The notes under the pieces are model-generated. The model was not told the origin of the DNA, ran no database searches, and was given only the letters and a program-made list of their open reading frames with translations. The position numbers and the translations under genes were made by a program. A DNA stretch of 64,000 nucleotides, from contig MHHG01000055.1 of NCBI GenBank assembly GCA_001805965.1, positions 3,680-67,679 of the forward strand, read 5' to 3'. The stretch is from Omnitrophica WOR_2 bacterium RIFOXYA2_FULL_38_17 (GTDB lineage: Bacteria > Omnitrophota > Gorgyraeia > Zapsychrales > Zapsychraceae). Shown one piece after another: positions 4,630 to 63,911 of this stretch. Within the stretch, counting starts at the first letter, position 1. Every line of letters starts with the position of its first letter.

Positions 4630-4721
4630 GTTTTTCTCATTATAGAAATAAAAGATACTCTATTTAATATTATTCTTAACTGGTCTTGATTTAAATAAAA
4701 CAAAGAATAGAAAAAAGAAGA

Positions 4722-5777: not shown

Positions 5778-5819
5778 TTTTATGCTCCTGATAAGATGAT
5801 TTATTTAGGTGAGTAGTTG

Positions 5820-6986: not shown

Positions 6987-6999
6987 AACAAGTTAGCCC

Positions 7000-7620
7000 C
7001 TATTTCCCGGAAGATTTCTTGTTAAACATTTTTCTTATTCCGCTAAATCTCTGCGTAGACTTGTCTTTTTCCTTGCCGTCTACTCCCTTTTTAATCTCAA
7101 CCTTCAGTTGATCTTTTTTCTTTAAAGGTTCATTTGCCTCATCTTTTAGCGGTACTTTTAAAGCTTTATGTGTTTTAGTTATAACTTCAGCCTGTTCAGG
7201 CGCTACTTTTTCTACTTTAGTTTTTGAAGAAGCTTTCACTTTAGGCTTACTTACAACAATTGCCTTTTTTTCAGTTAGCTCAAGAAAAACAAGCTCAGCA
7301 TTATCACCTTTTCTTGTTCCAATCGGAATTATTCTTGTATATCCACCTTGCCTCTCTTTAAAACGAGGAGCAATGTCTGAAAATAATGCACTGACCAATC
7401 TATGATTACATAGGACGGCATATGCACGTCGCTTCTCAGCCAACGTACCTTTTTTCCCCATAGTAATAAGTTTATCAACTAATTTTCTTGCTTCCTTAGC
7501 CTTGGCTTTTGTAGTACTTATCCTATCTTTCAACAAAGCAGCTTTTGCAATATCTCGCATTGTTGCTTTTCTAAGACTAGAATTCCTACTTAATCTATTT
7601 CCTGAAATACCGTGTCGCAT
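7000..7620 (-). CDS. rplQ: 50S ribosomal protein L17 with ~85-aa lysine-rich C-terminal extension
   Basis: The L17 core (MRHGISGNRLSRNSSLRKA...GYTRIIPIGTRKGDNAELVFLEL) is followed by a K-rich tail. It is the last gene of the alpha operon. Confidence 0.9.
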   Translation of the reverse strand: MRHGISGNRLSRNSSLRKATMRDIAKAALLKDRISTTKAKAKEARKLVDKLITMGKKGTLAEKRRAYAVLCNHRLVSALFSDIAPRFKERQGGYTRIIPIGTRKGDNAELVFLELTEKKAIVVSKPKVKASSKTKVEKVAPEQAEVITKTHKALKVPLKDEANEPLKKKDQLKVEIKKGVDGKEKDKSTQRFSGIRKMFNKKSSGK

Positions 7621-9810: not shown

Positions 9811-10185
9811 TTATTTTGTAGTCTTCTTGCCACCGACAGATGGTTTTTTACCTTTTCTAACACGTGCATTTGTTTTTGTACGTTGCCCCCTTACCGGAAG
9901 GCCTTTTCGATGGCGCATTCCTCGATAAGTTCCGATATCAACATGCCTCTTCACATTCTGGCTGACATCCCTTCGAAGGTCACCTTCTATAATATAATTA
10001 TTCTGAATTATTGATGTTATGCGGGCTATTTCCTCGTCAGAAAGATCCTTCGCTCTTCTATTAACATCAATATTTGCTTCCTTTAAAATATCCAAGGTAT
10101 TAGCAGGACCAACCCCATAAATATATGGCAAAGCTGCCTCAATTCTCTTTTCCTTTGGAATATCAACACCTAAAATTCTTGGCAT
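9811..10185 (-). CDS. rpsM: 30S ribosomal protein S13
   Basis: MPRILGVDIPKEKRIEAALPYIYGVG... is a canonical S13 N-terminus. Confidence 0.95.
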   Translation of the reverse strand: MPRILGVDIPKEKRIEAALPYIYGVGPANTLDILKEANIDVNRRAKDLSDEEIARITSIIQNNYIIEGDLRRDVSQNVKRHVDIGTYRGMRHRKGLPVRGQRTKTNARVRKGKKPSVGGKKTTK

Positions 10186-10189
10186 AATC

Positions 10190-10303
10190 TTACCCTTGTC
10201 TTTGTTTATGTTTTGGATTTATGCAAATTACACGAACAACACCTTTTCTCCGAACAACTTTGCAATTGCTGCATACTCTTTTTATAGATGATTTTACTTT
10301 CAT
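10190..10303 (-). CDS. rpmJ: 50S ribosomal protein L36 (zinc-ribbon type)
   Basis: This gene is not in the ORF track. Manual translation gives [37 protein letters not shown] (37 aa) with a C-x2-C...C...H motif, located between infA and rpsM as expected. Confidence 0.85.
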
Positions 10304-10305
10304 GT

Positions 10306-10524
10306 TTACTTATTCCTGTATGTTATTCTTCCTCTTGTTAAATCATAGGGAGAAAGCTCTACTTTTACTTTGTCCCCTGGAAGAATCCTTATAAAATGTT
10401 TTCTGATTTTCCCTGAAATATGTGCTTGAACAATGTGCCCATTTTCTAACTCTACTCGAAACTTAGCATTTGGAAGGGCTTCTTTTACTATGCCTTCAAC
10501 TTCTATAAGATCTTCTTTAACCAT
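10306..10524 (-). CDS. infA: Translation initiation factor IF-1
   Basis: The 72-aa ORF ([32 protein letters not shown]...) is an S1-like OB fold. Confidence 0.95.
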
Positions 10525-48444: not shown

Positions 48445-49860
48445 TTACAACTCAGAAGATACCTCAGGAGTGATAATAGTTGGCGTAATAAAGATCAACA
48501 AATCAGTTTTATCTACATCCTTAGATGTTTTGGTAAATAGCTTTCCCAATATCGGGATATCTCCTAAAAATGGCACCTTTTTCTTTACATCTACAGCTTT
48601 ATCCTTAACTAAACCGCCAATTACCAAAGTTTCTCCATCCTTTACCATTACTTTAGTAGAAGCTTGCTCAATGCTTAGTTTTGGAACTGCAGAACCACTT
48701 GCCGCATCTGTAACGTCACCTAAATTATCAGTTATACTTGGCTCAACATCAAGCGTAATAATCCCTGCAGCCAAGCTAACGTGCGGGGTAACTTTCAAAA
48801 CTATTCCTATCTTTTTATACTCCCAGCCTGATAACTGCCAACTTCCAGTTTCATCGTTAAAAAACTTCAATGGGTATGGGTGCTCCGTTCCCACATCAAT
48901 CCTTGCTTCATGATTATCCAACGTGACAATTCTAGGATTAGAAAGAATATTCGTATCAGTTCTTTCTGCTAACATTCTGAATACAGCTTGTAAATTAGCA
49001 AAACTAAGTGTTCCATTAGTAATTGCAGAAGCGGTTGATGTTACTCCGCCAGTATCTATATTGGGATTGATATATTTATTATCAATTACAGGAGGTGCGA
49101 ACGGAAATGTATGTGTTATGGAAGAGCCTGTTACACTGGCTTGCGTAGTCCATTCTATTCCTAGCTGTTCAGAATCATCTAAAACTGTCTCAATAATTTT
49201 ACTTTCAATTAAGACTTGTGGAGTAGTCGCATCCAAACCTTTTATAACCTTTGCGATTAAGACTAGCTTGCTTGCTGTATCAGTTACAATTAAAGTATTT
49301 GTTCTTTCATCAAAATTAACATTACCTCTTTCTGATTTCATTTTTTCAAGAGATTCAACGATCTCTGAAGCCCTGCCAAAATTAAGCATGAATATTTCTG
49401 TTTCTAAAGGCTCTTGTTCGGCAAGAAGCAATGAGTCCTCTCTTCTTTTCTTCATGTCTTCAATAGTAGTAACAACAATTATGTTGCCCTTTTGGTCATA
49501 CGCATATCCATATGTTTGCAAAATTACCTCAAGAGCCTGTTTCCAGGGAACATCCTTAAGCTGTATAGTTACAACGCCGATTACTTCAGGGCTCGTAACA
49601 ATATTTATACCGCTTTTAAAAGCAAGTATTTTCAAGACATTCCTGATATCGGCTTCTCGGAAATCCAAGCTTACGTCCCCTCCATCAGACATCATAACAT
49701 CATCTGCAGATTGAGAAGCTCCTTCAACTTCAGATCCAGCAACATTTTGTTTAGCAGGTATTTCTGATCCTTTTTGAGCAAAAACGCACTCAACTCCCAC
49801 AACGGAAATCATTATAAATATTCCTATGATTAGAAAAATCCCTATCTTTTTCCCAGACAT
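48445..49860 (-). CDS. pilQ: Type IV pilus secretin PilQ
   Basis: N-terminal signal/TM, N-domains and a C-terminal secretin domain (VPFLGDIPILGKLF). Confidence 0.85.
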   Translation of the reverse strand: MSGKKIGIFLIIGIFIMISVVGVECVFAQKGSEIPAKQNVAGSEVEGASQSADDVMMSDGGDVSLDFREADIRNVLKILAFKSGINIVTSPEVIGVVTIQLKDVPWKQALEVILQTYGYAYDQKGNIIVVTTIEDMKKRREDSLLLAEQEPLETEIFMLNFGRASEIVESLEKMKSERGNVNFDERTNTLIVTDTASKLVLIAKVIKGLDATTPQVLIESKIIETVLDDSEQLGIEWTTQASVTGSSITHTFPFAPPVIDNKYINPNIDTGGVTSTASAITNGTLSFANLQAVFRMLAERTDTNILSNPRIVTLDNHEARIDVGTEHPYPLKFFNDETGSWQLSGWEYKKIGIVLKVTPHVSLAAGIITLDVEPSITDNLGDVTDAASGSAVPKLSIEQASTKVMVKDGETLVIGGLVKDKAVDVKKKVPFLGDIPILGKLFTKTSKDVDKTDLLIFITPTIITPEVSSEL

Positions 49861-49861
49861 A

Positions 49862-50221
49862 TTATTCCTCCTTTTTTAACTGCAACTCAAAAATCTTGTT
49901 TCCCTTAATAAGATAGACCTTTTCACTTTTAATCTCATGAACAGTAAAGTCTCCTATCTTATCCTTAATCTTGACAATTTTACCGTTAATTATAACAAGA
50001 CTACTATCTCCATCACCTAACATCACACCCTCGAGAGATAGGTCAGAAATTGAAAGACTGTCATCAAAGTTCTCAATAATACCATCAGCGCTCACCAATG
50101 GCAACATCGGATCCCTTTTGCCCTGATCATCATATTTTAAAATATCTTCTTCGGAAAAAGAAACATTTACCGCAATAACGATCAGACAACAAACAATATT
50201 TATGATTTTAATTAACCGCAT
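49862..50221 (-). CDS. PilP-like pilus assembly protein (small secreted beta-domain protein)
   Basis: Signal peptide MRLIKIINIVCCLIVIAVNVSFS and a C-terminal pattern L..G...G......I.G..V..GD.I....V..I....V.L typical of PilP/GspC HR domains. It sits in the pilO-pilQ slot. Confidence 0.45.
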   Translation of the reverse strand: MRLIKIINIVCCLIVIAVNVSFSEEDILKYDDQGKRDPMLPLVSADGIIENFDDSLSISDLSLEGVMLGDGDSSLVIINGKIVKIKDKIGDFTVHEIKSEKVYLIKGNKIFELQLKKEE

Positions 50222-50232
50222 ACATTTTTTCC

Positions 50233-50835
50233 CTATTTTTTACCTTTTAACTCTTCATAAACAACAGCATCCAGTACAATCTCAACTGAATGTTTTTGCT
50301 CTCCCCTTGAAGATATAATGCCAAAAGAGCTGACTTTAAAAAATATGTCCCCGCGCTCAAGTTGGCTTAAAAATCTGCCAAAATCATGATAACCGCTTCT
50401 AGCCTTTATAAGTATAGGCAAACCATAATAACGCCTCTCATCATTCTCTAACAGGATTTTCTGATCTTGCACATCAGGCATGATCTGATCAATCTTAACT
50501 CCGTTATCATCAGCCATGCGAGAAATATTTTCCAGAATAAGAGGAACTTCCTCCTTGAATTTAAGCTTTGCATTTGATTTTGCAACATCCGCTCTTAATC
50601 TTTCAACTTGTACCTGATACTGTTTTGATCTTAAAATATCATCTTTAGCTTTGTTAATATCCTCGGAAAGCAAACGAATTTCCGGGCTTATCTTAGATAA
50701 AGAGGCAATCTGCGGCCTCATAAGAACAAAGTAATCTAAAAGGAAGACTGAAAATAATATGCCGCCCAAAATATAGTAGATAACTTTTTCATCTACACTT
50801 TCTATATAGGACGATATTTTGTTCTGCAATGTCAT
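50233..50835 (-). CDS. pilO: Type IV pilus assembly protein PilO-like
   Basis: Single N-terminal TM, coiled coil and C-terminal alpha/beta domain, in the position between pilN and pilP. Confidence 0.6.
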   Translation of the reverse strand: MTLQNKISSYIESVDEKVIYYILGGILFSVFLLDYFVLMRPQIASLSKISPEIRLLSEDINKAKDDILRSKQYQVQVERLRADVAKSNAKLKFKEEVPLILENISRMADDNGVKIDQIMPDVQDQKILLENDERRYYGLPILIKARSGYHDFGRFLSQLERGDIFFKVSSFGIISSRGEQKHSVEIVLDAVVYEELKGKK

Positions 50836-51428
50836 TATTTACCCACTCTAGACGTTATTAAAAAATCAGCAACATCTACCTTGTTAATCTTTCTCATTTG
50901 TATTGAACCTAACTCCAGATCCGTTAGGTCCGTTAAAAATTCTGCATCTTGTTTAAGATTTGCTGTAAATTTATGTACTCCTATCATCTCTTTATTCTGC
51001 CTGGAAATTGCACTACCCTCTACAAAAAAAGCATCTTCATTAAATGCTATCCTCCTCAACCAAACCCCCTTTGGAAGATTATCACTTAAAATATTCAGTT
51101 TCTGTGACCAAATAACCTTTTCCTCTTCCGTAAGTTTCTTTATTGCGCTTTGCTTGTTCTGAAGCATCCTAAGCTCACTAATAATAACATCAACTTTCTC
51201 TTTGTCAGGAACAATTCCTTCCCAAGATGCTTTTAATGTATTATGTTTTGCTAACTTAGAAACATTAATTGCAAGCAAAACAACATGCACAACAAATAGC
51301 AGTATAATCAGTCCTCCACCTAGCCCAATAACCACTTCCAAAGGCAGCTTAAATCCTCCCACGAAGAAATCCTTCTTCTTCTTTTTTCTTAAACGCATTG
51401 GAACTAAGTTTATATCAATTATATTCAT
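50835..51428 (-). CDS. pilN: Type IV pilus assembly protein PilN-like
   Basis: MNIIDINLVPMRLRKKKK then a TM helix, which is a PilN N-terminus. The start was placed at M9 of the ORF-track call. Confidence 0.6.
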   Translation of the reverse strand: MNIIDINLVPMRLRKKKKKDFFVGGFKLPLEVVIGLGGGLIILLFVVHVVLLAINVSKLAKHNTLKASWEGIVPDKEKVDVIISELRMLQNKQSAIKKLTEEEKVIWSQKLNILSDNLPKGVWLRRIAFNEDAFFVEGSAISRQNKEMIGVHKFTANLKQDAEFLTDLTDLELGSIQMRKINKVDVADFLITSRVGK

Positions 51429-52470
51429 ATAAAGCCAATCCAAAGGCAACACCTAAATTAAGGGCCTTTTTGTTAAGATCATCAACATCTATTCCTTTAG
51501 ACACTCCTAAAGCCTTAAGTGGATCCCACCTTTCAACTTGCATTTCTAAATTATCCCCTAAAACATCAACGATACCTTCTAATAAAGAGCCGCCCCCAGT
51601 TACTAATAATTTATCAACTTCTTTGCTTTTTTCCGTAGAAAAATAATCAATAGATAATCTTAATTCCTGGACAATATTCATAAGGGTCGATTCACAAGCA
51701 GCTTTTACTTCACTAACTCTTTTAGCTGGTTGACATTTTAATTTCTCAGCTTCTTCTAAACTAATGCCCAATGTATTGCTTATTCTCTTTGTAAAATCAG
51801 CACCTCCGACAAAAATATCTCGTGTAAATCTTGGTGATTTGTTAACAATGATAATAAACGTGCTAACAGACTCTCCTATATCCAACAATGCCACTGTTTG
51901 ATCTTTACCTTCATCTTCTTTTTCTAATGAAAAGTTCAAAGCATTGACCAATGCAGCTGGATTCAATCCAATAAAATCTGCCTGATATCCTAAGCTTGAA
52001 ATAAGCTGCATTCTCTGGTCAATCATCTCTTTCTTTGCAGCAGATGCCATAACAGCCATCTGCTTGCTCTTCTTATCACCATCCAGAATATAACAATCTG
52101 TATAAATTTGATCTTGCGAGAAAGGGAAATACTTATCAGCTTCTATAGAAAATGAGTTGCGCAAATCATCTATAAGCATTCTGGGCATATCTATATAACG
52201 TATCAGAGTCCCTTTTCCAAAAACAGCAGTATATATCGTATTTGGTGGATTCCTTAGTTGCGCGATTAATGTTTTTATTGCTTCGGCTATACCACTCTTT
52301 CTTGACGATTCAATTGCCCAGCTAACTAACTCATATTCATTATTCTCTTTCTTTATTTCAACTAACTTACAACTGTTTAAACCAATATCTATTCCAACAG
52401 CTGTACCCTTAGGCTTGTCAGGAAGAAATTTTTTTATTATGCCGAAATAATTATTTAGCAATGCATTCAT
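51415..52470 (-). CDS. pilM: Type IV pilus assembly ATPase-like protein PilM (actin fold)
   Basis: AVGIDIGLNSCKLVEI phosphate-1 motif and actin/FtsA-like fold. Confidence 0.85.
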   Translation of the reverse strand: MNALLNNYFGIIKKFLPDKPKGTAVGIDIGLNSCKLVEIKKENNEYELVSWAIESSRKSGIAEAIKTLIAQLRNPPNTIYTAVFGKGTLIRYIDMPRMLIDDLRNSFSIEADKYFPFSQDQIYTDCYILDGDKKSKQMAVMASAAKKEMIDQRMQLISSLGYQADFIGLNPAALVNALNFSLEKEDEGKDQTVALLDIGESVSTFIIIVNKSPRFTRDIFVGGADFTKRISNTLGISLEEAEKLKCQPAKRVSEVKAACESTLMNIVQELRLSIDYFSTEKSKEVDKLLVTGGGSLLEGIVDVLGDNLEMQVERWDPLKALGVSKGIDVDDLNKKALNLGVAFGLALYEYN

Positions 52471-52623: not shown

Positions 52624-52664
52624 TAAAAAAAGGAGAGGGCTTAATTAGCCCCCTCCTTTTAAAA
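52624..52664 (-). terminator. Rho-independent terminator downstream of pilA (bidirectional architecture)
   Basis: GGAGAGGGC-ttaatta-GCCCCCTCC (9-bp stem, one mismatch) is flanked by an A-run upstream and a T-run downstream on the plus strand. The minus strand shows hairpin plus TTTTTTT about 20 nt after the pilA stop. Confidence 0.7.
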
Positions 52665-52685: not shown

Positions 52686-53081
52686 TTATTGCTGACTTAA
52701 AACCCCACCAGTTGTAACTGTAAAATGTGTCGTTCCTGATGTTCCAAGAGTCATAGCATTTGCATCAAAGGTATAATAACCTGGAGCAAATGTACAGGCA
52801 TAAGTAAAACCTGATGTTGACTGACCACAATAAGCTGCATTTAGATAAGGTGGTGTTGCGCCGGTCAATGAAGCTTCATTTCCTGGATATACACCATTTG
52901 ATGATGTTTGAAACGTTTCTGCCGCTGTTGACATCGTTTTGAGCGTGCTCTGTGCTAGCGCATCATTTGCTGAGATCTTAGCTCTTAGCAAGTTTGGAAT
53001 AGCAATTGCTGCTAACAAAGCGATAATTGCGACTACGATCATAATTTCTACTAACGTAAAACCTTTTTGGCTCATTCTCAT
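52686..53081 (-). CDS. pilA: Type IVa major pilin (prepilin, class III signal peptide)
   Basis: MRMSQKG|FTLVEIMIVVAIIALLAAIAIPNL gives the G-1, F+1, E+5 prepilin peptidase/N-methylation motif. A C-terminal Cys pair suggests a D-region disulfide. GGAGG SD lies 6 nt upstream. Confidence 0.85.
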   Translation of the reverse strand: MRMSQKGFTLVEIMIVVAIIALLAAIAIPNLLRAKISANDALAQSTLKTMSTAAETFQTSSNGVYPGNEASLTGATPPYLNAAYCGQSTSGFTYACTFAPGYYTFDANAMTLGTSGTTHFTVTTGGVLSQQ

Positions 53082-53240: not shown

Positions 53241-53270
53241 ATTCTACCACCTCCTCTCTTTCCTTGTCAA
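53241..53270 (-). promoter_or_regulatory. Candidate sigma70 promoter for pilA (long 5' UTR ~150 nt)
   Basis: The minus strand reads TTGACA, an 18-nt spacer, then TAGAAT. Confidence 0.35.
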
Positions 53271-53605
53271 TTCATTTATATACTCTTGCTTTGGCTGCTT
53301 TCGCACCAAAACAAAACATGGCTGAACAAAGACAGATTTTACCCACTCAATAATACCAACAATGGTTTTTTCCAATATGCGCATTTTTATCACAAGCACC
53401 TCTCAAAAAAAAATCCCACCCCATTATAAGGAGCAGGACTATTAGAATCCCTTTGTGGCAACTGGCTGTCCTATTTTCTCTTAGGACCCTATAGCTTTGT
53501 GCCCCATCCTTACGAATGGTTTACCATTTACACAACCAACCCAAACTTTCAGTTCAAGTATAACATCAAAAAAAATTATTGTCAAAAAAGAGGCATTTTA
53601 CAAAC

Positions 53606-54628
53606 TTACTTGTTTTTTATTGCCTCAATTTTTTTTTGAAAATCATACACTTTCTTTATTAATACCAAGTGTTCATTCTTGATCGCAGCCAAATTTTCAG
53701 TTAATTGACGCTCTTCAGCTTCTCCACCATCTAAATTCAATTTACTGTCCTTCAATTTCTCTTTAGCAATAGAAAGTACATTGTCAAGATTATCCTTTTG
53801 TTCATTTAAAGCCGCTATTTCCTTTAATAGCTCTTCTTTGCGACTTTCTCTTTCATTACTGACATTAGCAATTTCTTTTTGTATTTTGTCTTCTTCTCCT
53901 AAAATAATCTTAAGCTCGTCTTCAACTATCAACAATTGCTGCTTCAAAAGACTTCTTTTTTTACCGATTTCTTCTACTTCAGATACTGGTCGCATATTAG
54001 TCTCTGTAACTTTGGACAATTGTCTTTGCAATCCTTCAATCTCGTTTTCGCTTCTTTCGATTTGTTCAAGCACTTGTTTCTTAATACTGTCTTCTGTGCC
54101 TTTACTTTTTTTCATATCAAAATTATCAATCTTCATTTGAATATCAGCAATATCTTTACTGACTTTATCGATTGATTGCAGAACTTCTTTTTCTTTAACT
54201 TGCTTTACATCTAATTTCTTCTCTAAAATCTGTTGCTCTCTAACAATCTTACTAACATCATCAGTTAAGCTATTCGCATTTTTCTCAAAGAACATTAGCT
54301 CCTGTTCTTCAGCATCCATATCATCAAGGCTCGCGTTCTGTACTTTCCACTTCATTTTATCTTCTTCAAGACGTATTAACTCTGTTTTTAATGTCTTGAT
54401 ATTCTCACGAAGCTTTTCATTTTCAGAAACAAGCCATATATTCTTTTGTGCAACTTCTTGGGCGCTGTTTTTCAAACTTAACAAACTATACTCAAGAACT
54501 TTTCTTGCTGATAAATTAGCTCTTCTCTCTGCATGACAAAAATCGGCATTAACTTGAATAAATATTACAGTTAAAAATAAAGTTTTTACAATTGTCGTTC
54601 TACAAACAATCTTAGTTTTTTTAAACAT
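53606..54628 (-). CDS. Secreted long coiled-coil protein of unknown function (pil-locus associated)
   Basis: The 340-aa ORF has an N-terminal signal-like hydrophobic segment, then about 300 aa of E/K/L/Q-rich heptad-like sequence. I recognise no catalytic motifs. Confidence 0.5.
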   Translation of the reverse strand: MFKKTKIVCRTTIVKTLFLTVIFIQVNADFCHAERRANLSARKVLEYSLLSLKNSAQEVAQKNIWLVSENEKLRENIKTLKTELIRLEEDKMKWKVQNASLDDMDAEEQELMFFEKNANSLTDDVSKIVREQQILEKKLDVKQVKEKEVLQSIDKVSKDIADIQMKIDNFDMKKSKGTEDSIKKQVLEQIERSENEIEGLQRQLSKVTETNMRPVSEVEEIGKKRSLLKQQLLIVEDELKIILGEEDKIQKEIANVSNERESRKEELLKEIAALNEQKDNLDNVLSIAKEKLKDSKLNLDGGEAEERQLTENLAAIKNEHLVLIKKVYDFQKKIEAIKNK

Positions 54629-54651: not shown

Positions 54652-55857
54652 TTAGACAATTTGTGTAATATTCAATATAGGCATAAATAAAGCAATAACA
54701 ATAAAACCAATCACTATACCAAGAACACCTATGATCAAAGGCTCAATAATACTGGTCAAACCTTCAACGGCTGCGTCAACTTGATCATCATAAAATTCAG
54801 CTATTTTTAAAAGCATTTTTTCCATCTGGCCCGATTTCTCGCCAATACCGATCATCCTAGTGACCATAGGCGGAAATACTTTACTTTTGCTTAATGGTGT
54901 TGCAATACTTTCACCTTCGCGTACACAATTTTTTACATCTTCGACAACATCTTCAAGGACAGTGTTTCCTATAGTCTTACCAACTATATCTAGAGATTCA
55001 AGAATCGGAACACCGCTTTGTATAAGGGTAGCCAGCGTTCGACTAAAACGGCTAATCGCAACTTTACAAAAAAGCTCGCCAAAAAGAGGCATGTTCAGAA
55101 CAGCCCCATCTATAACACGAGCGCCTTTTGCCGTTCTATACCATCTTCCGATAAGAAAAACTACAAAAACAAAAAAACCAACAATCCAAATCAAATAACT
55201 CTTGAGCCCTTCACTCACTCCAATTAGCATTTGAGTCATAGCCGGCAATTCCCTATCAAAAGAATCATAAATGCCCGCAAAAGTGGGAACAACCTTAACT
55301 AATAAAATAATCGTAATAATTGTCGCCATTGATACAATTACTGAAGGATATATCAATGCGGATTTGACTTTACGTTGCAGTTTAAGCGATTTCTCCATAT
55401 ATGTGGATATGCGGTCTAATACTTGACTTAAAACACCCCCAGTCTCTCCAACTCTTACCATGTTTACAAAAAGAGTGTCAAAAACACTAGGGTGTTTATT
55501 AAAAGCAGCAGAAAGGCTTGCTCCATGCTGAATATCATCATAAACATTTGTAAGAACCTTTTGAAACAGCGGATGAGAAACCTGGTCCTTCAAAGCATCA
55601 ATACCCTGAAGTATTGGTATGCCTGCATCAACCATTGTAGCTAATTGTCTTGTAAAAATGACGATCTCATCAGGCTTTACTTTTTTTGATTGAAAAGAAG
55701 AGCCAGTAATCTTGGAATCCTTTACTTCAACAACCGAAATAATAATAAGCTTCTTTTTCCTTAAAGCTTCAATGACTGATTCTTTATTATCCGCAGCAAT
55801 CTTTCCGGTAACATTCCCTGATTCTGCATTCTTTGCAACATATTTAAAAGTTGCCAT
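54652..55857 (-). CDS. pilC: Type IV pilus inner-membrane platform protein PilC (GspF family)
   Basis: The 401-aa ORF has two T2SSF repeats and three TM segments. Confidence 0.9.
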   Translation of the reverse strand: MATFKYVAKNAESGNVTGKIAADNKESVIEALRKKKLIIISVVEVKDSKITGSSFQSKKVKPDEIVIFTRQLATMVDAGIPILQGIDALKDQVSHPLFQKVLTNVYDDIQHGASLSAAFNKHPSVFDTLFVNMVRVGETGGVLSQVLDRISTYMEKSLKLQRKVKSALIYPSVIVSMATIITIILLVKVVPTFAGIYDSFDRELPAMTQMLIGVSEGLKSYLIWIVGFFVFVVFLIGRWYRTAKGARVIDGAVLNMPLFGELFCKVAISRFSRTLATLIQSGVPILESLDIVGKTIGNTVLEDVVEDVKNCVREGESIATPLSKSKVFPPMVTRMIGIGEKSGQMEKMLLKIAEFYDDQVDAAVEGLTSIIEPLIIGVLGIVIGFIVIALFMPILNITQIV

Positions 55858-55940: not shown

Positions 55941-56399
55941 TTAATTTCCACCATAAAGATTATTCAAAGCATGATCAATTTCCATTCTAGTGGAAATAAA
56001 AGGTACTATTTCACAACTGGTATCTTGCTTTAATTCCTGAAGAACCGAAAAATCCAAAGGATTCGACATAGCAATACTTAAAATATTACCAACACAATCT
56101 AAAGGGACAACACAATACTTAAAAGCTATCTGCCTTGGGATAATATTCAAGACTTCCTGCTTTATATCATACTGATCAATTGCAATATAAGGAAGCTTAC
56201 ACTGGGCAGACAAAGCAGCAACAACGTCTTTCTCGCTTACAAATCCCAGAGTTGTTAGGATCTCCCCGATGAATCTCTTATCTTTCTTTTGAATATTCAA
56301 AGCCCGACTAAGCTGCTTCCTAACAACCATCTTTCGATTAAGCAGAATCTCTCCTAAGCGACCTTTTTTATTGACAAATATTCCAGAATCAGCAACCAT
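55941..56399 (-). CDS. Standalone T2SSE_N / MshEN-like domain protein (PilB N-terminal domain only, 152 aa)
   Basis: Aligns to the N-domains of both downstream PilB paralogues (LPYIAIDQYDI...IPRQIAFKYCVVPL...LSIAMSNPLD). Tandem motifs RLGEILLNRKMVVRKQLSRALNIQ and FIGEILTTLGFVSEKDVVAALSAQ are present. Confidence 0.6.
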   Translation of the reverse strand: MVADSGIFVNKKGRLGEILLNRKMVVRKQLSRALNIQKKDKRFIGEILTTLGFVSEKDVVAALSAQCKLPYIAIDQYDIKQEVLNIIPRQIAFKYCVVPLDCVGNILSIAMSNPLDFSVLQELKQDTSCEIVPFISTRMEIDHALNNLYGGN

Positions 56400-56596: not shown

Positions 56597-58303
56597 TTAT
56601 TCATCCATAGCGACTCTTAAAACCTCTTCAAGAGTTATTAACCCAGAAACACATTTCTCGATAGCATCCTCCCAAATAGTCACCATTCCGTTAACCTCAC
56701 ACGCAAACCGTTTTATCTCATCGGATGAGCATCCCCTTAATAGCATCTCCTTGATCTCATCAGTTACCTCTAATACTTCCATCAAAGCCATTCTCCCAGA
56801 ATAGCCTGTACCATGACAAGCCTCACAACCTTTTCCATGATAGAAAACTGTATTGGGCTTGAATTTATAAGTCATCTTATCCAATACTTTCTTCGATATC
56901 TCAACTTTTTCTTTACAGCGTGTACAAATTTTCCTACATAGTCTTTGTGCATTTACCAGCACAAGGCTCGATGCAACCAAAAACGGCTCAACTCCCATAT
57001 CAACCAATCTTGTCAAAGTGCCGGCAGCATCATTTGTATGAAGGGTAGAAAAGACCAACTGCCCTGTTAATGATGCTTTCACTGCTATGTCAGCTGTTTC
57101 ATTATCACGAATCTCACCAACCATTACAATATCTGGGCTCTGTCGCAATATTGCCCTTAACCCCTCAGCAAAAGTCAATCCTATTTCAGGCCTAGCCTGA
57201 ATCTGTGTCAATCCCTCGATCAAATACTCAACCGGGTCCTCGACAGTAATGATGTTCTTATCCACTGTATTGAGCTCATTAATGATTGAGTATAAAGTTG
57301 TCGATTTGCCACTGCCCGTAGGGCCAGTGACCAAGAACATACCAAACGGTTTAACGATGCCATTCTTTAAAACAGCCAGAGACTTCTCAGAAATGCCTAA
57401 GCCATCAAGCCCAACAGTCAAATTACTTTTATCCAGAACACGCATGACAATTTTCTGCCCAAATGTTGTAGGCAATAAAGAAACGCGGAAATCAATTTCT
57501 TTTCCAGCGACTTTCATCTTAAAACGTCCGTCTTGAGGGACATAATTTGAAGTTATATCCAACCTGGACATTATCTTGATTCTTACGATAACGGCATTCT
57601 GGTTTTCCTTAGGCAAATTCAGGATATCTCTCAAAATACCATCTATTCTATAACGAACTCTGACGCCATCTTCCGCTGGTTCAATATGAATATCAGAAGC
57701 TTTCTGCCTTATTGCTTCTTTGACAATAAGATTGACCATTCGGATAACAGGGGCTTTCTCTCCGTCATCTGCAGGTCCACTGCTTCCATCTTCTTCTTGA
57801 TCCATGACTATTTCGAAATCATCTACCTGAATGTCCTGAGTAATATCAGTAACACTCACGCTTTCCGGAACGCCATAATAATTATCAATTGCCTTAATGA
57901 TCTCCGTATTTGTACTCATAACCACATCGATATCTTTGCCTGTGATACTTTTTAGGTCATCAGCGATAAAAACATCTAGCGGGTCTGCAAGCGCCACCGT
58001 AAGGGTGTTCTCAAGCAGTGAAAGAGGGATTATTTTATACTGCCTTGCTACCCGCTCTGGCACGATCTCTTGCAAATAAGGGTCGATCTTATATTTGCTT
58101 AAATTAATAAACGGGATATTTAGCTCTCTTACAAGAAGCATCAAAAGGTCGTCCTCCGCTATCAGCCCTTGTTCTATCAAAGCTTTATCAAGACCAATAT
58201 TCTTTCTCTTTTGCAATACAATAGCAGCATCAAGATCTTTTTTGCTGATCTGCTGAGTCTCAATAAGTGTATTCAAAATTTTATCTTTTAATGTCTTTGC
58301 CAC
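56597..58303 (-). CDS. pilB: Type IV pilus assembly ATPase PilB/GspE family, paralogue 1
   Basis: The 568-aa ORF has an N-terminal T2SSE_N domain, Walker A GPTGSGKST, Asp/His boxes and a tetracysteine CRKIC..C..C..CEACHGTG. It starts at a GTG with a 1-nt overlap onto the upstream stop. Confidence 0.9.
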   Translation of the reverse strand: MAKTLKDKILNTLIETQQISKKDLDAAIVLQKRKNIGLDKALIEQGLIAEDDLLMLLVRELNIPFINLSKYKIDPYLQEIVPERVARQYKIIPLSLLENTLTVALADPLDVFIADDLKSITGKDIDVVMSTNTEIIKAIDNYYGVPESVSVTDITQDIQVDDFEIVMDQEEDGSSGPADDGEKAPVIRMVNLIVKEAIRQKASDIHIEPAEDGVRVRYRIDGILRDILNLPKENQNAVIVRIKIMSRLDITSNYVPQDGRFKMKVAGKEIDFRVSLLPTTFGQKIVMRVLDKSNLTVGLDGLGISEKSLAVLKNGIVKPFGMFLVTGPTGSGKSTTLYSIINELNTVDKNIITVEDPVEYLIEGLTQIQARPEIGLTFAEGLRAILRQSPDIVMVGEIRDNETADIAVKASLTGQLVFSTLHTNDAAGTLTRLVDMGVEPFLVASSLVLVNAQRLCRKICTRCKEKVEISKKVLDKMTYKFKPNTVFYHGKGCEACHGTGYSGRMALMEVLEVTDEIKEMLLRGCSSDEIKRFACEVNGMVTIWEDAIEKCVSGLITLEEVLRVAMDE

Positions 58304-60072
58304 TACTTCTTCTTTTCCTCATCAGGTGATGTTAATCTCAAAACCTCTTCTATTGTTGTTAACCCATCTACTGCTTTCACCAAGCCATCTTCTCTCATAG
58401 TCCGCATACCTTCTTGACGTGCAACTTGTTTTATCTTTACTTCGCCTACCCGCGCCAAGACAGCCTCTTTCACTTTTTGGCTGAATACAAGGATTTCAGT
58501 GATACCAACCCGCCCCTTATAGCCAGTATTAAAACATTGCTTACATCCTTTTGGCCTCATAACTTCTATATTCTGTTTAGGATATAATTTATCAAGCCCA
58601 ACTTTTGAAGCTATCTCCGGAGTAACTATATAAGGCTCACAACATTTCGGGCAGACCTTTCTTAATAGCCTTTGGGCAATGATAGCCAACACAGAAGAAC
58701 ATATTAAAAATGGCTCAATACCCATATTCATCATACGGACTATTGAACCCGCAGCTGTTGTAGTGTGAAGAGAACTCAAAACAAGGTGTCCAGTCAAAGC
58801 AGCCTTAACCGCAATATCTAATGTTTCTTTGTCGCGGATCTCTCCTATCATGATAATATCCGGGTCTTGCCTGAGAATTGATCTTAGACTTGAAGAAAAA
58901 GTTAAGCCCATCTTTGCCTTTATATTAACTTGATTGACCCCTTTCATCTGGTACTCTACAGGGTCCTCAACCGTAACAATATTTTTTTCTGGAGAATCTA
59001 CATACTTTAGAATTGAATAAAGCGTTGTCGTCTTACCGCTTCCAGTGGGACCACAAGTTAAAATCAAGCCATGCGGCTTTACAGCGCAGTCCTTTAAGCG
59101 CTGCAAAGCAGTTGCTTCAAACCCTAAATTTTCAACATCAAGCACTGTTCCCTGCTGGTCCAAGACTCTCAACACAATTTTTTCGCCAACAGCAGTAGGC
59201 AAAACATTAACGCGAAAGTCAACCTCTCTGTCACCTGAAATTATCGTCTTAAACCTTCCATCTTGAGGCAACCTGTGTTCTGAAATATCTAAATTTGAAA
59301 TGACCTTTATTCTTGAAACCAATGGAAAATGCAACACTTTTGTCATTCGATCAATCTCTCGAATGACCCCATCAATCCTGTACCTGATGCGGACTGCTTT
59401 TTCTAATGGCTCTATGAACACATCGCTAGCTTTCGCAAACACTGCTTGCTGAATTATCGTGTCTGTTAACTTAATAATCGGCGCCTCGTCAGATATTGCC
59501 TCAACAGATGACTGCTCATCACTGTGTCCATCTTTAATTAATTCAAGGTCTTCAGTATCTCTAAAATCTTGAATGATCTCATCAAAGGTCTCATTATTTT
59601 TTTCCTGCTCTGGACTTTCCTGATCCTGCTCATCCTCATGCTTCAAATAATATTTCTCAATAGCTTTATGAATATCTGCAAACCTGCATATAATAGGAAT
59701 GATCATATAGCCTGTAAGAGCCTTAACATTATCTATTATAAATATGTTCAACGGATCCGCCATCGCGAGGGTCAGCTGATCTCCCAAGAGAGAAACAGGT
59801 ATAATTTGATATTTTAGTGCAATATCTTTTGGAATAGTTTGAATTACATCTGGCGAGATATTAAAACTAGCGATCTTAATTAAGGGAAGCTCAAGGCTTT
59901 CACTCAACACTTGGGTCAACTGGTCTTGACTCACAAAATTCATATCAACAAGTATCTTACTTAATTCTCCGCCTATTTTCTTTTGCTCAATTAACGCTTG
60001 CTCTAGCTCATTGGCGGTAATAAGTTCATCTCGAATAAGAATTTCTTTTAAGCGGTCTTTAAAAGATGCCAT
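58303..60072 (-). CDS. pilB: Type IV pilus assembly ATPase PilB/GspE family, paralogue 2
   Basis: The 589-aa ORF has an N-terminal T2SSE_N domain with RLKEILIRDELITANELEQALIEQ, an acidic linker, Walker A GPTGSGKTT and a tetracysteine CPKCC...CKQCFNTG. Confidence 0.9.
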   Translation of the reverse strand: MASFKDRLKEILIRDELITANELEQALIEQKKIGGELSKILVDMNFVSQDQLTQVLSESLELPLIKIASFNISPDVIQTIPKDIALKYQIIPVSLLGDQLTLAMADPLNIFIIDNVKALTGYMIIPIICRFADIHKAIEKYYLKHEDEQDQESPEQEKNNETFDEIIQDFRDTEDLELIKDGHSDEQSSVEAISDEAPIIKLTDTIIQQAVFAKASDVFIEPLEKAVRIRYRIDGVIREIDRMTKVLHFPLVSRIKVISNLDISEHRLPQDGRFKTIISGDREVDFRVNVLPTAVGEKIVLRVLDQQGTVLDVENLGFEATALQRLKDCAVKPHGLILTCGPTGSGKTTTLYSILKYVDSPEKNIVTVEDPVEYQMKGVNQVNIKAKMGLTFSSSLRSILRQDPDIIMIGEIRDKETLDIAVKAALTGHLVLSSLHTTTAAGSIVRMMNMGIEPFLICSSVLAIIAQRLLRKVCPKCCEPYIVTPEIASKVGLDKLYPKQNIEVMRPKGCKQCFNTGYKGRVGITEILVFSQKVKEAVLARVGEVKIKQVARQEGMRTMREDGLVKAVDGLTTIEEVLRLTSPDEEKKK

Positions 60073-60521
60073 TATTTTTGTTTATAGTATTTTTCAATGG
60101 ATTGTTTAATATCAGTAGTAGTGCTTACAAAGACCTGAACAATACATCCTGTCATAAGTTCAATATCTTCTGAAGCTTTTAGATTCAACGGGTCAGACAT
60201 TGCTATTGTTAAACTTTTACCTATCTTATCAATCGGAATAAGACAAAACTGCCTGCACACTTTTTCGGGGATCGCATTTATAACTTCATCATCAATTTCA
60301 TAATTCAGTAAGGGCAAATAAGGAAAGCCATACTGACATGTTATTGCCTGTGCAATATCTTTCTCTGTAGCAAAATTCAACTCAACAAGAACTTCACCTA
60401 TCAATCCACCATGCTTTTCCCTGTATTCCAGAGCCTCTTCTATTTGGGCATGATTTATAACTCCTCTTTCGATAAGAAGTTCTCCCAGTTTTTTATGTGT
60501 ATCTCTATTGAATTGTTTCAT
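60072..60521 (-). CDS. Standalone T2SSE_N / MshEN-like domain protein (149 aa)
   Basis: KLGELLIERGVINHAQIEEALEYR and LIGEVLVELNFATEKDIAQAITCQ tandem motifs, then PYLPLLNYEID...IPEKVCRQFCLIPI...LTIAMSDPLN matching PilB N-domains. ATGA overlap with pilB-2. Confidence 0.6.
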   Translation of the reverse strand: MKQFNRDTHKKLGELLIERGVINHAQIEEALEYREKHGGLIGEVLVELNFATEKDIAQAITCQYGFPYLPLLNYEIDDEVINAIPEKVCRQFCLIPIDKIGKSLTIAMSDPLNLKASEDIELMTGCIVQVFVSTTTDIKQSIEKYYKQK

Positions 60522-60700: not shown

Positions 60701-61069
60701 TTATCCGGTCAATCTTTTAATGCTGGAAAGCAGTTCCTCAGGATTGTAAGGCTTCATTAAATATTCATCAGCGCCCGCTTCTTTCCCCCAGAACTTGTCG
60801 CTCTCCGAAGTTTTAGCGGTTAAAAGTATAACCGGAATATGTGCTGTTTCAAGGCCATCTTTTATCATACGACAAACCTTATATCCGTTTGGAGCGGGCA
60901 TCATAACATCCAAAATTACCAGGTCTGGATGATATTCTTTGGTTAAACTTAAAGCCTCTTCGCCATTGGTTCCAGTGATTATTTCATATCCGTTCGCTTT
61001 TAAACGCAAACTTATCAGTTTAACAATCTCAGGCTCATCATCAATAATTAATATCTTTTTTCCCGACAT
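60701..61069 (-). CDS. Single-domain CheY-like response regulator (receiver only)
   Basis: ILIIDDEPEI...DLVILDVMMP...LLTAK receiver signature (phospho-acceptor Asp in LDVMMP). 122 aa, no output domain. Confidence 0.85.
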   Translation of the reverse strand: MSGKKILIIDDEPEIVKLISLRLKANGYEIITGTNGEEALSLTKEYHPDLVILDVMMPAPNGYKVCRMIKDGLETAHIPVILLTAKTSESDKFWGKEAGADEYLMKPYNPEELLSSIKRLTG

Positions 61070-61146: not shown

Positions 61147-61521
61147 TCATTTTTCCTTTAAAATATGTTCAATAATATCTATCCGGCTAACAATTCCAAC
61201 AACCTTTTTTTCCTTTATTACAGGCACTCTCTTTATATTCTTTTTAACCAGCAACCTACTGACATCTTCAACCAAATCATCCTCACTAATACTAATAACA
61301 TCCTTCGAATAAAACTCCTTAACGAGAGCATCCTTTGACCCAAGAAAATCATATGCAACTAAAAAATCCTTTTCAGTAACTACTCCGACAGCCTCCAGAT
61401 TATCATTAACAACTATTAGACCGCTTATATTATTTGACAAAAGAAGCCGCATCCCTTCTTCAATCTTAGCCTCTGGCTTTATAGTTACTACGTTAGTGGT
61501 CATAATATCCTTTGCTTGCAT
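61147..61521 (-). CDS. CBS-pair domain protein
   Basis: The 124-aa ORF has two CBS motifs (DIMTTNVVTIKPEAKIEEG... and VPVIKEKKVVGIVSRIDII). Confidence 0.8.
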   Translation of the reverse strand: MQAKDIMTTNVVTIKPEAKIEEGMRLLLSNNISGLIVVNDNLEAVGVVTEKDFLVAYDFLGSKDALVKEFYSKDVISISEDDLVEDVSRLLVKKNIKRVPVIKEKKVVGIVSRIDIIEHILKEK

Positions 61522-61577: not shown

Positions 61578-63911
61578 TTAGGTCAATCTTTCAATTAAAT
61601 CTATTACAACATTGATGTTGCCAGACTTTTCTATTATTGGGATTTCACCAAGTTCACCACATTCTTCCTTAACCTCACTTAAACGTTTATCTGTAAGAAC
61701 TATTATCGGGATCGCTGCGTACTGAGAATTCTGTTTTAATCTTCCCAAAACCTCATATCCGTTCATATTTGGCATGACAATATCAAGCAATATTAAATCT
61801 GTTTTTTTTGTTTTTAAATAATCCAGCGCCTCTTCACCATCAAAAACCTGTTCTGTAATAATGCCGTAGCGGCCCAATCTTGTTGAAAGCAATCTTCCGA
61901 TCTGCGGATGATCATCAACAATCAATACTTTTTTCTTTTTTTCGCATTCTTCTAAAGCCCTTATTGCTAATTCATTCTTATTCCGACCATCTTTTGGATG
62001 GAAAGCCAATCCAAACTTTACTTTTATCCCCAAGTCATCTTTCATCATGGCAATTCTCTCACGCAAAGCGCCCTTTATTTTCTCTAATAAGACCATCCCG
62101 CCTTTTTTATCTGTATCAGCAAGGGCAATATGAATTGTATCTTTATCATATAAGATATATTTATCTGTTGTCCTTGAAAGCGATCTTGACAATATTTCAA
62201 AAGCAATATTTATGATTTTATTAGCAAATGCTTCTCCATACTTGGTCATGACCATATCAATGCCCATAAAACGAGCAACAATAAAAACAGAATCCTTATT
62301 CTTTATTTTTGTCTCTGAAAATATCCAATCAACATCATGATCAAATTTTTGCTTTAATTTCAATTTGCTTGGAAGAGTAAAAAAGAAAGTTGCACCCTTA
62401 CCTGTCTCGCTCTCTGCCCAGATTTGCCCGTCATGAAGGTCAATTAAAGATTTGCTTATAGTCAAGCCTAAGCCCGTACCTTTTATTCCCGGGCCATGTA
62501 TTCTTCCAAATTGGGTAAATTTATCAAAAAGCTTTGGGATATTCTCCTTTTCAATCCCCAAACCCGTATCTGAAATCCTAAACAGGCATCCTCCATCCTG
62601 CTCATTGATCTCAATCTCTATTTCGCCACCTTCAGGTGTAAATTTATGAGCATTATTCAATAAATTTGTAACGACCTGTATTATTTTATCTTCATCAAGA
62701 AATATAAACATTTCCTTTTCTGGGAATATTGCTCTTATCTTTTGCTGCTTTGTATCTAAAACCTTTCTATATTCATCCGTCAATTTATTTATTATTGCTT
62801 TTAGGTCAACAATGGTCTTTCTAAGAGTGATCTCTCCGGATTCTATTTTAGAAACATCTAATAGATCATTCACAATTGTTTGTAACCTGTGAAGATTGTC
62901 CTTTGAAGCATTTAAAAGCTCTTTTTGCTGTTCATTAATTCCGCCAACAACGCCATCTAAAATAAGGTTTATGCACTCAGTTGATATCGCCAGCGGAGTC
63001 CTTAACTCATGGGAAACAGTGGAAACAAAATCAGATTTCAATTGATCTAATTTTTTTAGTTCCAAATTCTTTCTTTCAAGATTCTTATACAGATTCTTAA
63101 TTGATTCGTTAGTTTTTTGTAGCCCCCAGGATTGTTGTTCCAGCTTATCTCTAGCATTATCTAAATCTTTTTCAGCACTTTTTTTTGCTGTAATATCACT
63201 AAATGATTCGATACCGCCAATAATATGGCCCTCATCATTTTTTAAGATGTCAGAATTCTTAAGAATAGTTATTCTTTCACCATTTTTTCTCTTAATAGAA
63301 CACTCGGTCTCAACAATCGGCTTCTCTACATCATTACTATAAAGCCCGCAGTAAGACTCACAGGGATATTCAGCGAATATATCGCATTTTTTACCAATAA
63401 CCTCTTGGGCGGTATATCCTGTAAGCTCTTCGGCCTTTTTATTCCAGCCAGTTACAACTTTGTTTTCATCAACAGTAAATACAGCGCTCGGAACAACTCT
63501 AAAAATGCGCTCCAAATCCTTATTTGCTTTAATTACAGCTTCCTCAGCATGCTTATACACTGTTATGTCGCTCATTAAATGAATTGAGCCTAATAAATCT
63601 TTATTATCATCAAAAAGAGGTGCCGTTCGGATAAAGAACCATTTATTAAAAATAGGCTCCCAATGCTCCTTTTGTTCATATTTTTTTGAGTCCTTTAGAA
63701 CACAGTATGGACAATCAGATATAGGCTGGTTCTTAGAATGTATGACCTCATAACATTTCTTGTTCAATAAAGCACTTTCATCCTTGCCAATAAACTTTAA
63801 AAAAGCCTTGTTCACTTTCTTTATTCCATTCTCTAGATCAAGAATAAAGATGAAATCTTCTAAAACATCAAAAGCTGGAGACCAAAACCGATTATAATCA
63901 AGATTTTTCAT
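61578..63911 (-). CDS. Hybrid sensor histidine kinase: two PAS domains, HisKA-HATPase, degenerate GGDEF-like domain, C-terminal receiver
   Basis: H-box VSHELRTPL; G-boxes ISDTGLGI and GTGLGLTI. The inter-domain segment IDMVMTKYGEAFANKII...RTTDKYILYDKDTIHIALADTD aligns to GGDEF, with GGDEF replaced by DKDTI and RxxD five residues upstream. C-terminal VLIVDDHP...LLDIVMP receiver. Confidence 0.8.
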   Translation of the reverse strand: MKNLDYNRFWSPAFDVLEDFIFILDLENGIKKVNKAFLKFIGKDESALLNKKCYEVIHSKNQPISDCPYCVLKDSKKYEQKEHWEPIFNKWFFIRTAPLFDDNKDLLGSIHLMSDITVYKHAEEAVIKANKDLERIFRVVPSAVFTVDENKVVTGWNKKAEELTGYTAQEVIGKKCDIFAEYPCESYCGLYSNDVEKPIVETECSIKRKNGERITILKNSDILKNDEGHIIGGIESFSDITAKKSAEKDLDNARDKLEQQSWGLQKTNESIKNLYKNLERKNLELKKLDQLKSDFVSTVSHELRTPLAISTECINLILDGVVGGINEQQKELLNASKDNLHRLQTIVNDLLDVSKIESGEITLRKTIVDLKAIINKLTDEYRKVLDTKQQKIRAIFPEKEMFIFLDEDKIIQVVTNLLNNAHKFTPEGGEIEIEINEQDGGCLFRISDTGLGIEKENIPKLFDKFTQFGRIHGPGIKGTGLGLTISKSLIDLHDGQIWAESETGKGATFFFTLPSKLKLKQKFDHDVDWIFSETKIKNKDSVFIVARFMGIDMVMTKYGEAFANKIINIAFEILSRSLSRTTDKYILYDKDTIHIALADTDKKGGMVLLEKIKGALRERIAMMKDDLGIKVKFGLAFHPKDGRNKNELAIRALEECEKKKKVLIVDDHPQIGRLLSTRLGRYGIITEQVFDGEEALDYLKTKKTDLILLDIVMPNMNGYEVLGRLKQNSQYAAIPIIVLTDKRLSEVKEECGELGEIPIIEKSGNINVVIDLIERLT

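Follow-up and report, generated by a model that had tools for sequence, protein, structure and literature searches.

A 64,000-nucleotide stretch (the window) of contig MHHG01000055.1 from Omnitrophica WOR_2 bacterium RIFOXYA2_FULL_38_17, a member of the phylum Omnitrophota, carries an operon for a type IVa pilus that encodes just one platform protein, PilC, and in which two adjacent genes encode PilB-family ATPases, here named PilBa and PilBb. The data give good support to the idea that this pair is an ancient, obligatory and co-translated two-ATPase module serving a single pilus machine. From sequence comparisons we further propose, at a little short of an even chance, that PilBa and PilBb jointly form one composite motor, probably a mixed ring, that extends the one type IVa pilus.

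An earlier note on this DNA had described two tandem PilB/GspE-family ATPases of 568 and 589 aa, each with an N-terminal domain and a tetracysteine, and the open reading frames (ORFs), Pfam matches and motifs all agree with that description (Table 1). The Pfam MshEN domain was matched at 64.5 bits in PilBa and 74.8 bits in PilBb, and the T2SSE matches were far beyond chance (E = 5.7e-139 and 1.4e-130, respectively). Walker A (residues 341-348 in PilBa, 327-334 in PilBb), the Asp box (366-373 and 352-359) and Walker B with the catalytic Glu (405-414 and 391-400) could be assigned in both proteins, and the arginine fingers of both are intact. The tetracysteine, two CxxC pairs, comprises C474/C477/C510/C513 in PilBa and C460/C463/C493/C496 in PilBb, and is invariant in the 32-sequence ortholog alignment of each. 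Both ATPases have the PilB architecture of N1D (MshEN/GSPII), N2D and CTD, the sole gap being the first His of the PilBb His box. Thus, of the complete Walker A, Asp and His boxes that had been claimed, the first two stood in both proteins, whereas in the His box of PilBb, TGQLVFSTLHT, Gln415 has replaced the first His. An acidic linker, also noted previously, lies in the 589-aa protein at approximately residues 145-196, though it is weakly conserved among orthologs.

The two genes overlap. At their junction, AAG AAG TAG TG GCA, the G of the PilBa stop codon TAG doubles as the first base of the PilBb GTG start, in agreement with the single shared nucleotide read earlier. This GTG start is supported by the fact that PilB homology begins at residue 4 of the 568-aa protein. 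The NCBI call of the window's PilBb is 560 aa, 8 residues shorter than the GTG-start ORF. Over their full length PilBa and PilBb are 43% identical, which indicates that the duplication is ancient. Neither frameshifting nor catalytic degeneration was seen, since both ORFs are intact and the core catalytic residues are at least 90% conserved in both ortholog groups. A recent, near-identical duplication and an assembly artefact were likewise rejected, on the basis of the 43% identity, the separate ortholog groups of ~70% identity to which the two proteins belong, and a PilBb that is 100% identical in an independent record, that of Omnitrophica WOR_2 bacterium GWF2_38_59.

The two proteins have lost different residues that are otherwise kept throughout the family. 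We scanned for columns that were at least 90% conserved in 73 outgroup PilB/GspE sequences and altered in either the PilBa or the PilBb group. In the 121-sequence alignments, one per group, the Walker A motif, Asp box, Walker B and catalytic Glu, both arginine fingers, the second His of the His box and the four cysteines were at least 90% conserved in each group. In PilBa-type proteins the His of the N2D motif ASDIH is replaced by F or L in all seven lineages examined, the deepest included; the window's PilBa reads ASDVF at this site (F219, bases 59416-59418). In PilBb-type proteins the first Asp of RQDPD, just before Walker B, is replaced by S, A, N or T in all six lineages, and the window's PilBb reads RQSPD (S389, bases 57137-57139). 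PilBa retains what PilBb has lost and PilBb what PilBa has lost, and all three sites (His, Asp and His) are canonical in the window's PilT. Further changes mark the core of each group. The core PilBb clade has TGQ for TGH in the His box (Q415 in the window, bases 57059-57061) and GQK for GEK (Q283), and is without the conserved E and R that lie four and two residues before PQDGR (S252 and Y254). The core PilBa clade has T340C beside Walker A, LSSLHTTT for LSTLHTND and three further changes. PilBb Q415 is the counterpart of H413 in Geobacter PilB. In the G. metallireducens protein, T411 lies between H413 and H420 where neighbouring packing units meet at the ATP site, and the His box has been proposed to mediate inter-chain cooperativity (PMC5424180). 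A full-text literature search for the motif strings ASDIH and RQDPD brought up no relevant paper, and residues inside the packing unit are not covered in the article on Geobacter PilB.

To assess conservation, 80 genome loci fetched with PilBa were annotated for gene order. In every Omnitrophota locus that extended far enough, 14 in all and among them L001, L003-L009, L014, L018, L021 and L028, the order was an MshEN-only gene, a PilBa-type gene, a PilBb-type gene and PilC; three further loci (L002, L010 and L015) end too early to show the whole order. The same four-gene layout was found through independent gene calls in additional contigs (L089, L095, L096 and the P0379 locus). Loci from outside the Omnitrophota mostly have a single PilB followed by PilC. 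The overlaps between genes also recur in several lineages: the stop codon of the MshEN-only gene (MshEN1) overlaps the start of PilBa as TAATG in the window, L001, L003, L007, L008 and L089, and the PilBa/PilBb overlap, in the form TAGTG, TAATG or ATGA, was seen in the window, L001, L009 and L008. Both paralogues are therefore kept across the Omnitrophota in one type IVa pilus operon, which answers the question of conservation in related genomes that the earlier note had raised.

The closest cluster representative of PilBa, from a marine Omnitrophota metagenome-assembled genome, is 94% identical, and PilBa orthologs are ~70% identical across the phylum. Among the matches listed for each paralogue (at least 120), identity is at least ~66% and lengths are tightly kept, and the named ones are Omnitrophota. 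For MshEN1 the orthologs are 70-75% identical and 148-151 aa long, and the named ones among the matches listed are again Omnitrophota. Between the window and L001, the ratio of nonsynonymous to synonymous substitution rates (dN/dS) was 0.040 for MshEN1, 0.043 for PilBa, 0.053 for PilBb, 0.054 for PilC and 0.167 for MshEN2, a second stand-alone MshEN gene. PilBa and PilBb are thus under purifying selection as strong as that on PilC. The only disrupted copy seen was the PilBb ortholog of L003 (positions 4301-6003), which is split into two ORFs of 226 and 362 aa by either a frameshift or a sequencing error. Many such PilB-type proteins carry the public names 'Flp pilus assembly complex ATPase component TadA', 'GspE' or 'hypothetical protein'.

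Family models place both proteins with PilB. The NCBIfam PilB model (TIGR02538) scored 623.2 bits for PilBa and 612.3 bits for PilBb, the best family for both yet under its equivalog cutoff of 675.65, and it was also the best family for all 32 PilBa and 32 PilBb orthologs scanned. Cutoffs were not reached for GspE (TIGR02533; 556.3 and 585.6 bits versus 630.25), TfpB (NF053534; 449.3 and 471.3 bits versus 850) or PilT/PilU (TIGR01420; 182 and 189 bits versus 319). The best PDB matches of both proteins were Geobacter and Myxococcus PilB (E ~1e-148 to 1e-158). The possibility that one copy is a TfpB or a GspE was rejected on these cutoffs and, for GspE, also on a gene context of PilMNOPQ and pilin rather than Gsp genes and on a tree position outside the GspE group. 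One copy as a retraction motor was rejected as well, because both have N1D and the zinc site and score as PilB, and a real PilT with an AIRNLIRE motif is encoded separately in the window. No retraction role need therefore fall to either protein, and the extension-type character proposed in the earlier note holds for both.

A neighbour-joining tree with Kimura-corrected distances, adequate for clade membership only, was built from the N2D and CTD core of 150 sequences, with PilBs of other phyla, E. coli GspE and HofB, P. aeruginosa XcpR, Pantoea GspE, A. baumannii PilB and N. gonorrhoeae PilF as references and the window's PilT as outgroup; MshE was represented in the comparisons by its N-domain model and PDB 5HTL only. 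The first genes of the pairs (PilBa-type) formed one clade with a bootstrap of 87 (99 for its core), and the second genes (PilBb-type) another with a bootstrap of 81 (100 for its core). Set against PilB, PilF, GspE and PilT references, as had been suggested, the paralogues are thus two separate ancient ortholog groups. The two clades appear as sisters at 20% bootstrap support only, and the pair may have originated either by a duplication in the Omnitrophota stem or by acquisition of one copy. Core identity rises from 48% between PilBa and PilBb, and 49-50% when they are compared with PilBs from other phyla, to 73-75% among members of the same group. Since the identity between the paralogues matches that to other-phyla PilBs, the paralogy is as deep as the divergence between phyla.

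Two-ATPase layouts recur elsewhere. In a full HMMER scan with PilBa against 1.84 billion representative proteins, the top matches were proteins of ~1000 aa with two complete T2SSE modules, which made up 14 of the 150 best representatives (P0361-P0376 and P0384 are such proteins, and L090 8001-11030 is one continuous ORF). One of these clusters includes a named protein of the Parcubacteria (candidate phyla radiation, CPR), KKU82539.1, with members on several independent contigs. The RQDPD Asp is lost in the second module of 10 of the 13 double ATPases and in the first module of none of the 13; the second module usually reads RQNPN or RQNPD instead. As the halves of the CPR fusions form their own clade, the fusions arose independently of the Omnitrophota pair. 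That the halves might be orthologs of PilBa and PilBb was rejected on the same ground, and in some fusions the two halves stem from a recent internal duplication. Among the one-module best matches, 104 have the canonical His, Asp and His, and the matches in which the His or Asp is missing belong to the PilBa or PilBb type. Contigs were also fetched for four divergent Asp-lacking representatives (L091-L094). L094 has the tandem layout, and L091 and L092, from other lineages, have the order PilB (RQSPN or RQAPN), PilT and canonical PilB, with PilC next in L092; L091 ends inside the second PilB. Divergent PilBs without the RQDPD Asp are thus mostly paired with another PilB (L091, L092 and L094).

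The N-terminal domains differ in their predicted ligand binding. With the MshE-related NCBIfam model NF053729 (cutoff 38 bits), representing the cyclic di-GMP (c-di-GMP) motif described in PMC12943098, PilBa (48.5 bits), MshEN1 (58.7) and MshEN2 (54.7) passed and PilBb failed (26.1). At the cutoff-equivalent E-value, 29 of 32 PilBa orthologs and all 32 MshEN1 orthologs passed, against 0 of 32 PilBb orthologs. PilBa retains the Arg and Gln of motif 1 (R7 and Q30), both reported to be pivotal for c-di-GMP binding in MshE (PMC12943098), and is predicted to bind this ligand; PilBb has Lys there and a degenerate motif. MshEN1 carries K, Q or H at the first Arg position, which makes its binding of c-di-GMP uncertain. 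The best PDB match of MshEN1 was the N-terminus of Thermus PilF (E = 8.7e-42), with 5HTL at E = 3.8e-17.

MshEN1 is as conserved as the ATPases, phylum-wide, whereas MshEN2 evolves faster and occurs in some lineages only (present in the window, L001, L003, L005, L006 and L007; absent in L004, L008, L009, L014, L018, L021 and L028). In the lineage of L021 and L028, the N-terminal domains of the ATPases are lost or degenerate: the first ATPase (408-410 aa) has no MshEN domain, and the MshEN-only gene still precedes it. Conversely, in L095 (positions 5001-7298, JGI 3300009514 contig) a single 765-aa chain, P0368, joins an MshEN1-like domain (residues 4-150, 44.7% identical to MshEN1) through a Gly/Lys-rich linker to a PilBa-type ATPase; the next gene is of PilBb type, with RQSPD and TGQ, and PilC comes after it. 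This fusion, together with the MshEN loss in L021 and L028, suggests that MshEN1 acts as a detachable extra N-domain of PilBa. In the deep lineage of L010, an MshEN-only protein of 202 aa (positions 9890-10498) has extra copies of the 24-residue helical motif between the usual two.

These features can be compared with known systems. The PilBs of Geobacter metallireducens, Geobacter sulfurreducens and Myxococcus xanthus (PDB 5TSH, 5ZFR and 3JC8) share with PilBa and PilBb the N1D(MshEN)-N2D-CTD layout, the catalytic motifs, the tetracysteine and the operon partners PilC, PilMNOPQ and pilin. They are single-copy homohexamers, however, whereas the Omnitrophota have two diverged copies, each lacking a different family-invariant residue. 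Thermus thermophilus PilF, with three fused GSPII/MshEN domains, likewise has several MshEN domains per motor, and the L095 fusion resembles it in its double N-terminus; in the Omnitrophota, by contrast, MshEN1 and MshEN2 supply the extra MshEN domains mostly as polypeptides of their own, and there are two ATPase genes rather than one. PilBa, MshEN1 and MshEN2 resemble Vibrio cholerae MshE (PDB 5HTL) in passing the MshE-type motif model, from which binding is predicted, and depart from it in that PilBb fails the model and MshEN1 has K, Q or H for the first Arg. PilT and PilU, paralogous ATPases of PilT-like type, also serve one machine and work best as a pair (review, PMC11656802), but they are retraction motors without N1D or the zinc site, and PilBa and PilBb are extension-type.

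In the reading we favour, PilBa and PilBb would be two subunits of one extension motor, made together from overlapping genes and most likely arranged in a mixed A3B3 ring, with the subunits alternating, docked on the single PilC/PilM platform. The subunits would be specialised, with PilBb lacking the c-di-GMP motif and bearing an altered inter-subunit His box. One type of interface would have been remodelled, one partner losing the ASDIH His and the other the RQDPD Asp; the detachable MshEN domain protein may be the signal-sensing module of the heteromeric motor, and pilus retraction would be performed by the PilT encoded elsewhere. Three observations favour a mixed ring: the losses of invariant residues are complementary, the genes are coupled, and double modules that have lost the same Asp recur. 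The platform protein has been proposed to be a trimer in which each monomer's two cytoplasmic domains face six ATPase protomers (review, PMC11656802), and an alternating ring would fit a trimeric PilC presenting six alternating cytoplasmic domains. Several points weigh against such a ring. The contact between PilBa and PilBb is one that we infer, and the solved PilB, GspE and PilF rings are homohexamers. In the C2 catalytic cycle of Geobacter PilB opposite sites fire together (PMC5424180), and the opposite protomers of an ABABAB ring would be unlike, at odds with that cycle. The two extension ATPases of A. baylyi each support some extension alone (review, PMC11656802). The CPR fusions are of independent origin and keep the His in their first module, so that they show that such pairs can exist, not that PilBa and PilBb co-assemble. 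Finally, the Asp-lacking PilB of L093 shows no partner on its 3.8-kb contig, and MshEN1 is without the position-1 Arg that is pivotal in MshE.

The main rival, which is a substantial possibility though on balance doubtful, is that two separate homohexameric extension motors alternate on the same type IVa machine, as has been proposed for PilB and TfpB of A. baylyi, where a single type IVa pilus has two extension ATPases that are phylogenetically distinct (review, PMC11656802). In one version PilBa would be gated by c-di-GMP via its N-terminal domain and MshEN1 and PilBb would be independent of the messenger; one might prime assembly and the other sustain it. Besides the A. baylyi precedent, this fits the core catalytic residues that both proteins retain in full, the clean split of the c-di-GMP motif between the ortholog groups, the homohexameric state of the solved relatives and the presence of one PilC and one PilM at the locus. 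Yet each homohexamer would then lack, in all six of its subunits, a residue that is invariant in 73 of 73 PilB/GspE sequences and in the window's PilT; co-regulation would require neither translational coupling nor so strict an adjacency; and the natural fused double ATPases, with their second-module Asp loss, point to co-assembly. Neither protein is a TfpB ortholog by its model score, and the Omnitrophota differ from A. baylyi in that their genes are tandem and translationally coupled within the pilus operon, phylum-wide, with complementary residue losses. Of the earlier proposal that the pair represents two functional motors on one pilus machine, then, the single machine is borne out by the one type IVa operon with its single PilC, but complete and independent motors are not fully supported, given that each protein has lost otherwise invariant residues, the genes are coupled and fusions exist. 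The same note had offered a pilus plus a second type IV filament, and such a division of labour, in which one paralogue drives the type IVa pilus and the other a different filament (a pseudopilus like that of a type II secretion system, or a DNA-uptake pilus) whose remaining parts lie elsewhere, appears very unlikely. Organisms with several filaments have one dedicated ATPase per filament (review, PMC11656802), and PilBb is relatively nearer to GspE than PilBa is (585.6 bits for GspE versus 612.3 for PilB). At the locus, however, the platform gene, the PilMNOPQ set and the pilin are each present just once, and the 64-kb window yielded no further PilC-like or GspF-like gene; the pair is adjacent, coupled and directly upstream of PilC phylum-wide, and both members score best to the PilB model with neither reaching the GspE cutoff. 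It is also hardly probable that PilBb (or PilBa) is a catalytically weakened regulatory paralogue, acting as a stator, adaptor or checkpoint that modulates the true motor. PilBb has indeed lost the first His of the His box, the Asp of RQDPD, the Glu of GEK and the E and R of ExR, and the N-terminal domains are lost or degenerate in the L021/L028 lineage; but in both groups little or no variation is seen in the Walker A Lys, Asp-box Glu, catalytic Glu, arginine fingers, second His-box His and zinc site, and dN/dS is as low as that of PilC.

The remaining features of the window are listed in Table 1. The PilT gene lies ~45 kb from the pilus operon, amid housekeeping genes. Between PilC and the pilin lies a coiled-coil protein without a Pfam match, which evolves fast (dN/dS 0.196) and has counterparts of similar size and position in L001, L008 and L089. 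In the 520-bp gap upstream of the pilin there are two strong sigma-70-like promoter matches (11/12; 53241-53585), and directly downstream of it a terminator-like hairpin with a 14-bp stem (52628-52660); these suggest that the pilin is also transcribed alone. Upstream of MshEN1, a response regulator, a CBS protein and a hybrid histidine kinase were considered as parts of the module, and this was unsupported, since the trio is kept only in the closest relative, L001, and not in other Omnitrophota loci. The GGDEF domain of the kinase (residues 537-661) is degenerate (Pfam 24.8 bits), and its catalytic motif is absent. The corresponding upstream region in L089 contains mreBCD, PBP2-like and RodA-like genes. 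All assigned genes of the window, including those for ribosomal proteins and translation, are on the minus strand, and the GC skew is uniformly negative (-0.18 to -0.33).

Table 1. Genes of the pilus locus and its surroundings, with positions as numbered in the window.
Feature	Positions	Strand	Description
Hybrid histidine kinase	61578-63911	minus	PAS-HisKA-HATPase-(degenerate GGDEF)-REC
CBS protein	61147-61521	minus	
Response regulator	60701-61069	minus	Single-domain
MshEN1	60072-60521	minus	Stand-alone MshEN (T2SSE_N), 149 aa; Pfam 69.5 bits
PilBa	58303-60072	minus	ATG start, 589 aa; N-terminal MshEN, acidic linker, N2D, CTD
PilBb	56597-58303	minus	GTG start, 568 aa; MshEN and T2SSE
MshEN2	55941-56399	minus	Stand-alone MshEN, 152 aa; Pfam 62.3 bits; motif RLGEILL...Q
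PilC platform protein	54652-55857	minus	401 aa; Pfam T2SSF E = 1.5e-66, two stretches; only one at the locus
Coiled-coil protein	53606-54628	minus	340 aa; N-terminal hydrophobic signal-like segment
Major pilin	52686-53081	minus	131 aa; N-terminal methylation motif, Pfam N_methyl
PilM	51415-52470	minus	Pfam PilM_2
PilN	50835-51452	minus	Pfam PilN
PilO	50233-50835	minus	Pfam PilO
PilP-like protein	49862-50221	minus	
PilQ secretin	48445-49860	minus	Pfam Secretin; NCBIfam PilQ 314.8 versus cutoff 284
PilT retraction ATPase	4722-5777	minus	351 aa; AIRNLIRE motif; no MshEN or tetracysteine

The type IVa pili of Omnitrophota are thought to mediate attachment to host cells. Such pili have been reported as near-universal in the phylum, in a study that does not mention PilB (Seymour et al. 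2023, PMC10066038), and our full-text literature searches turned up no account of bacterial PilB pairs, whether tandem or fused, in Omnitrophota or CPR. Why some bacteria possess several PilB homologs, and whether two extension ATPases form hetero-oligomers, are questions that a 2024 review on PilB regulation leaves open (PMC11656802). With a pairing that is obligatory, ancient and phylum-wide, the Omnitrophota offer a natural test case for the hetero-oligomer question, one hidden behind public labels such as 'TadA' or 'GspE'. The residue signature names targets for mutation (the ASDIH His, the RQDPD Asp and the His-box His), and the natural fusions, MshEN1-PilBa and the CPR double PilB, could be directly expressible for structural work. 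We raise tentatively the broader possibility that Omnitrophota pili are built by a heteromeric A3B3 PilB ring and that CPR bacteria do likewise, independently, through fused double ATPases. If true, the PilT/GspE secretion-ATPase superfamily would thereby gain its first heteromeric motor. The build and regulation of the pilus motor bear on the biology of the uncultured, ultra-small Omnitrophota.

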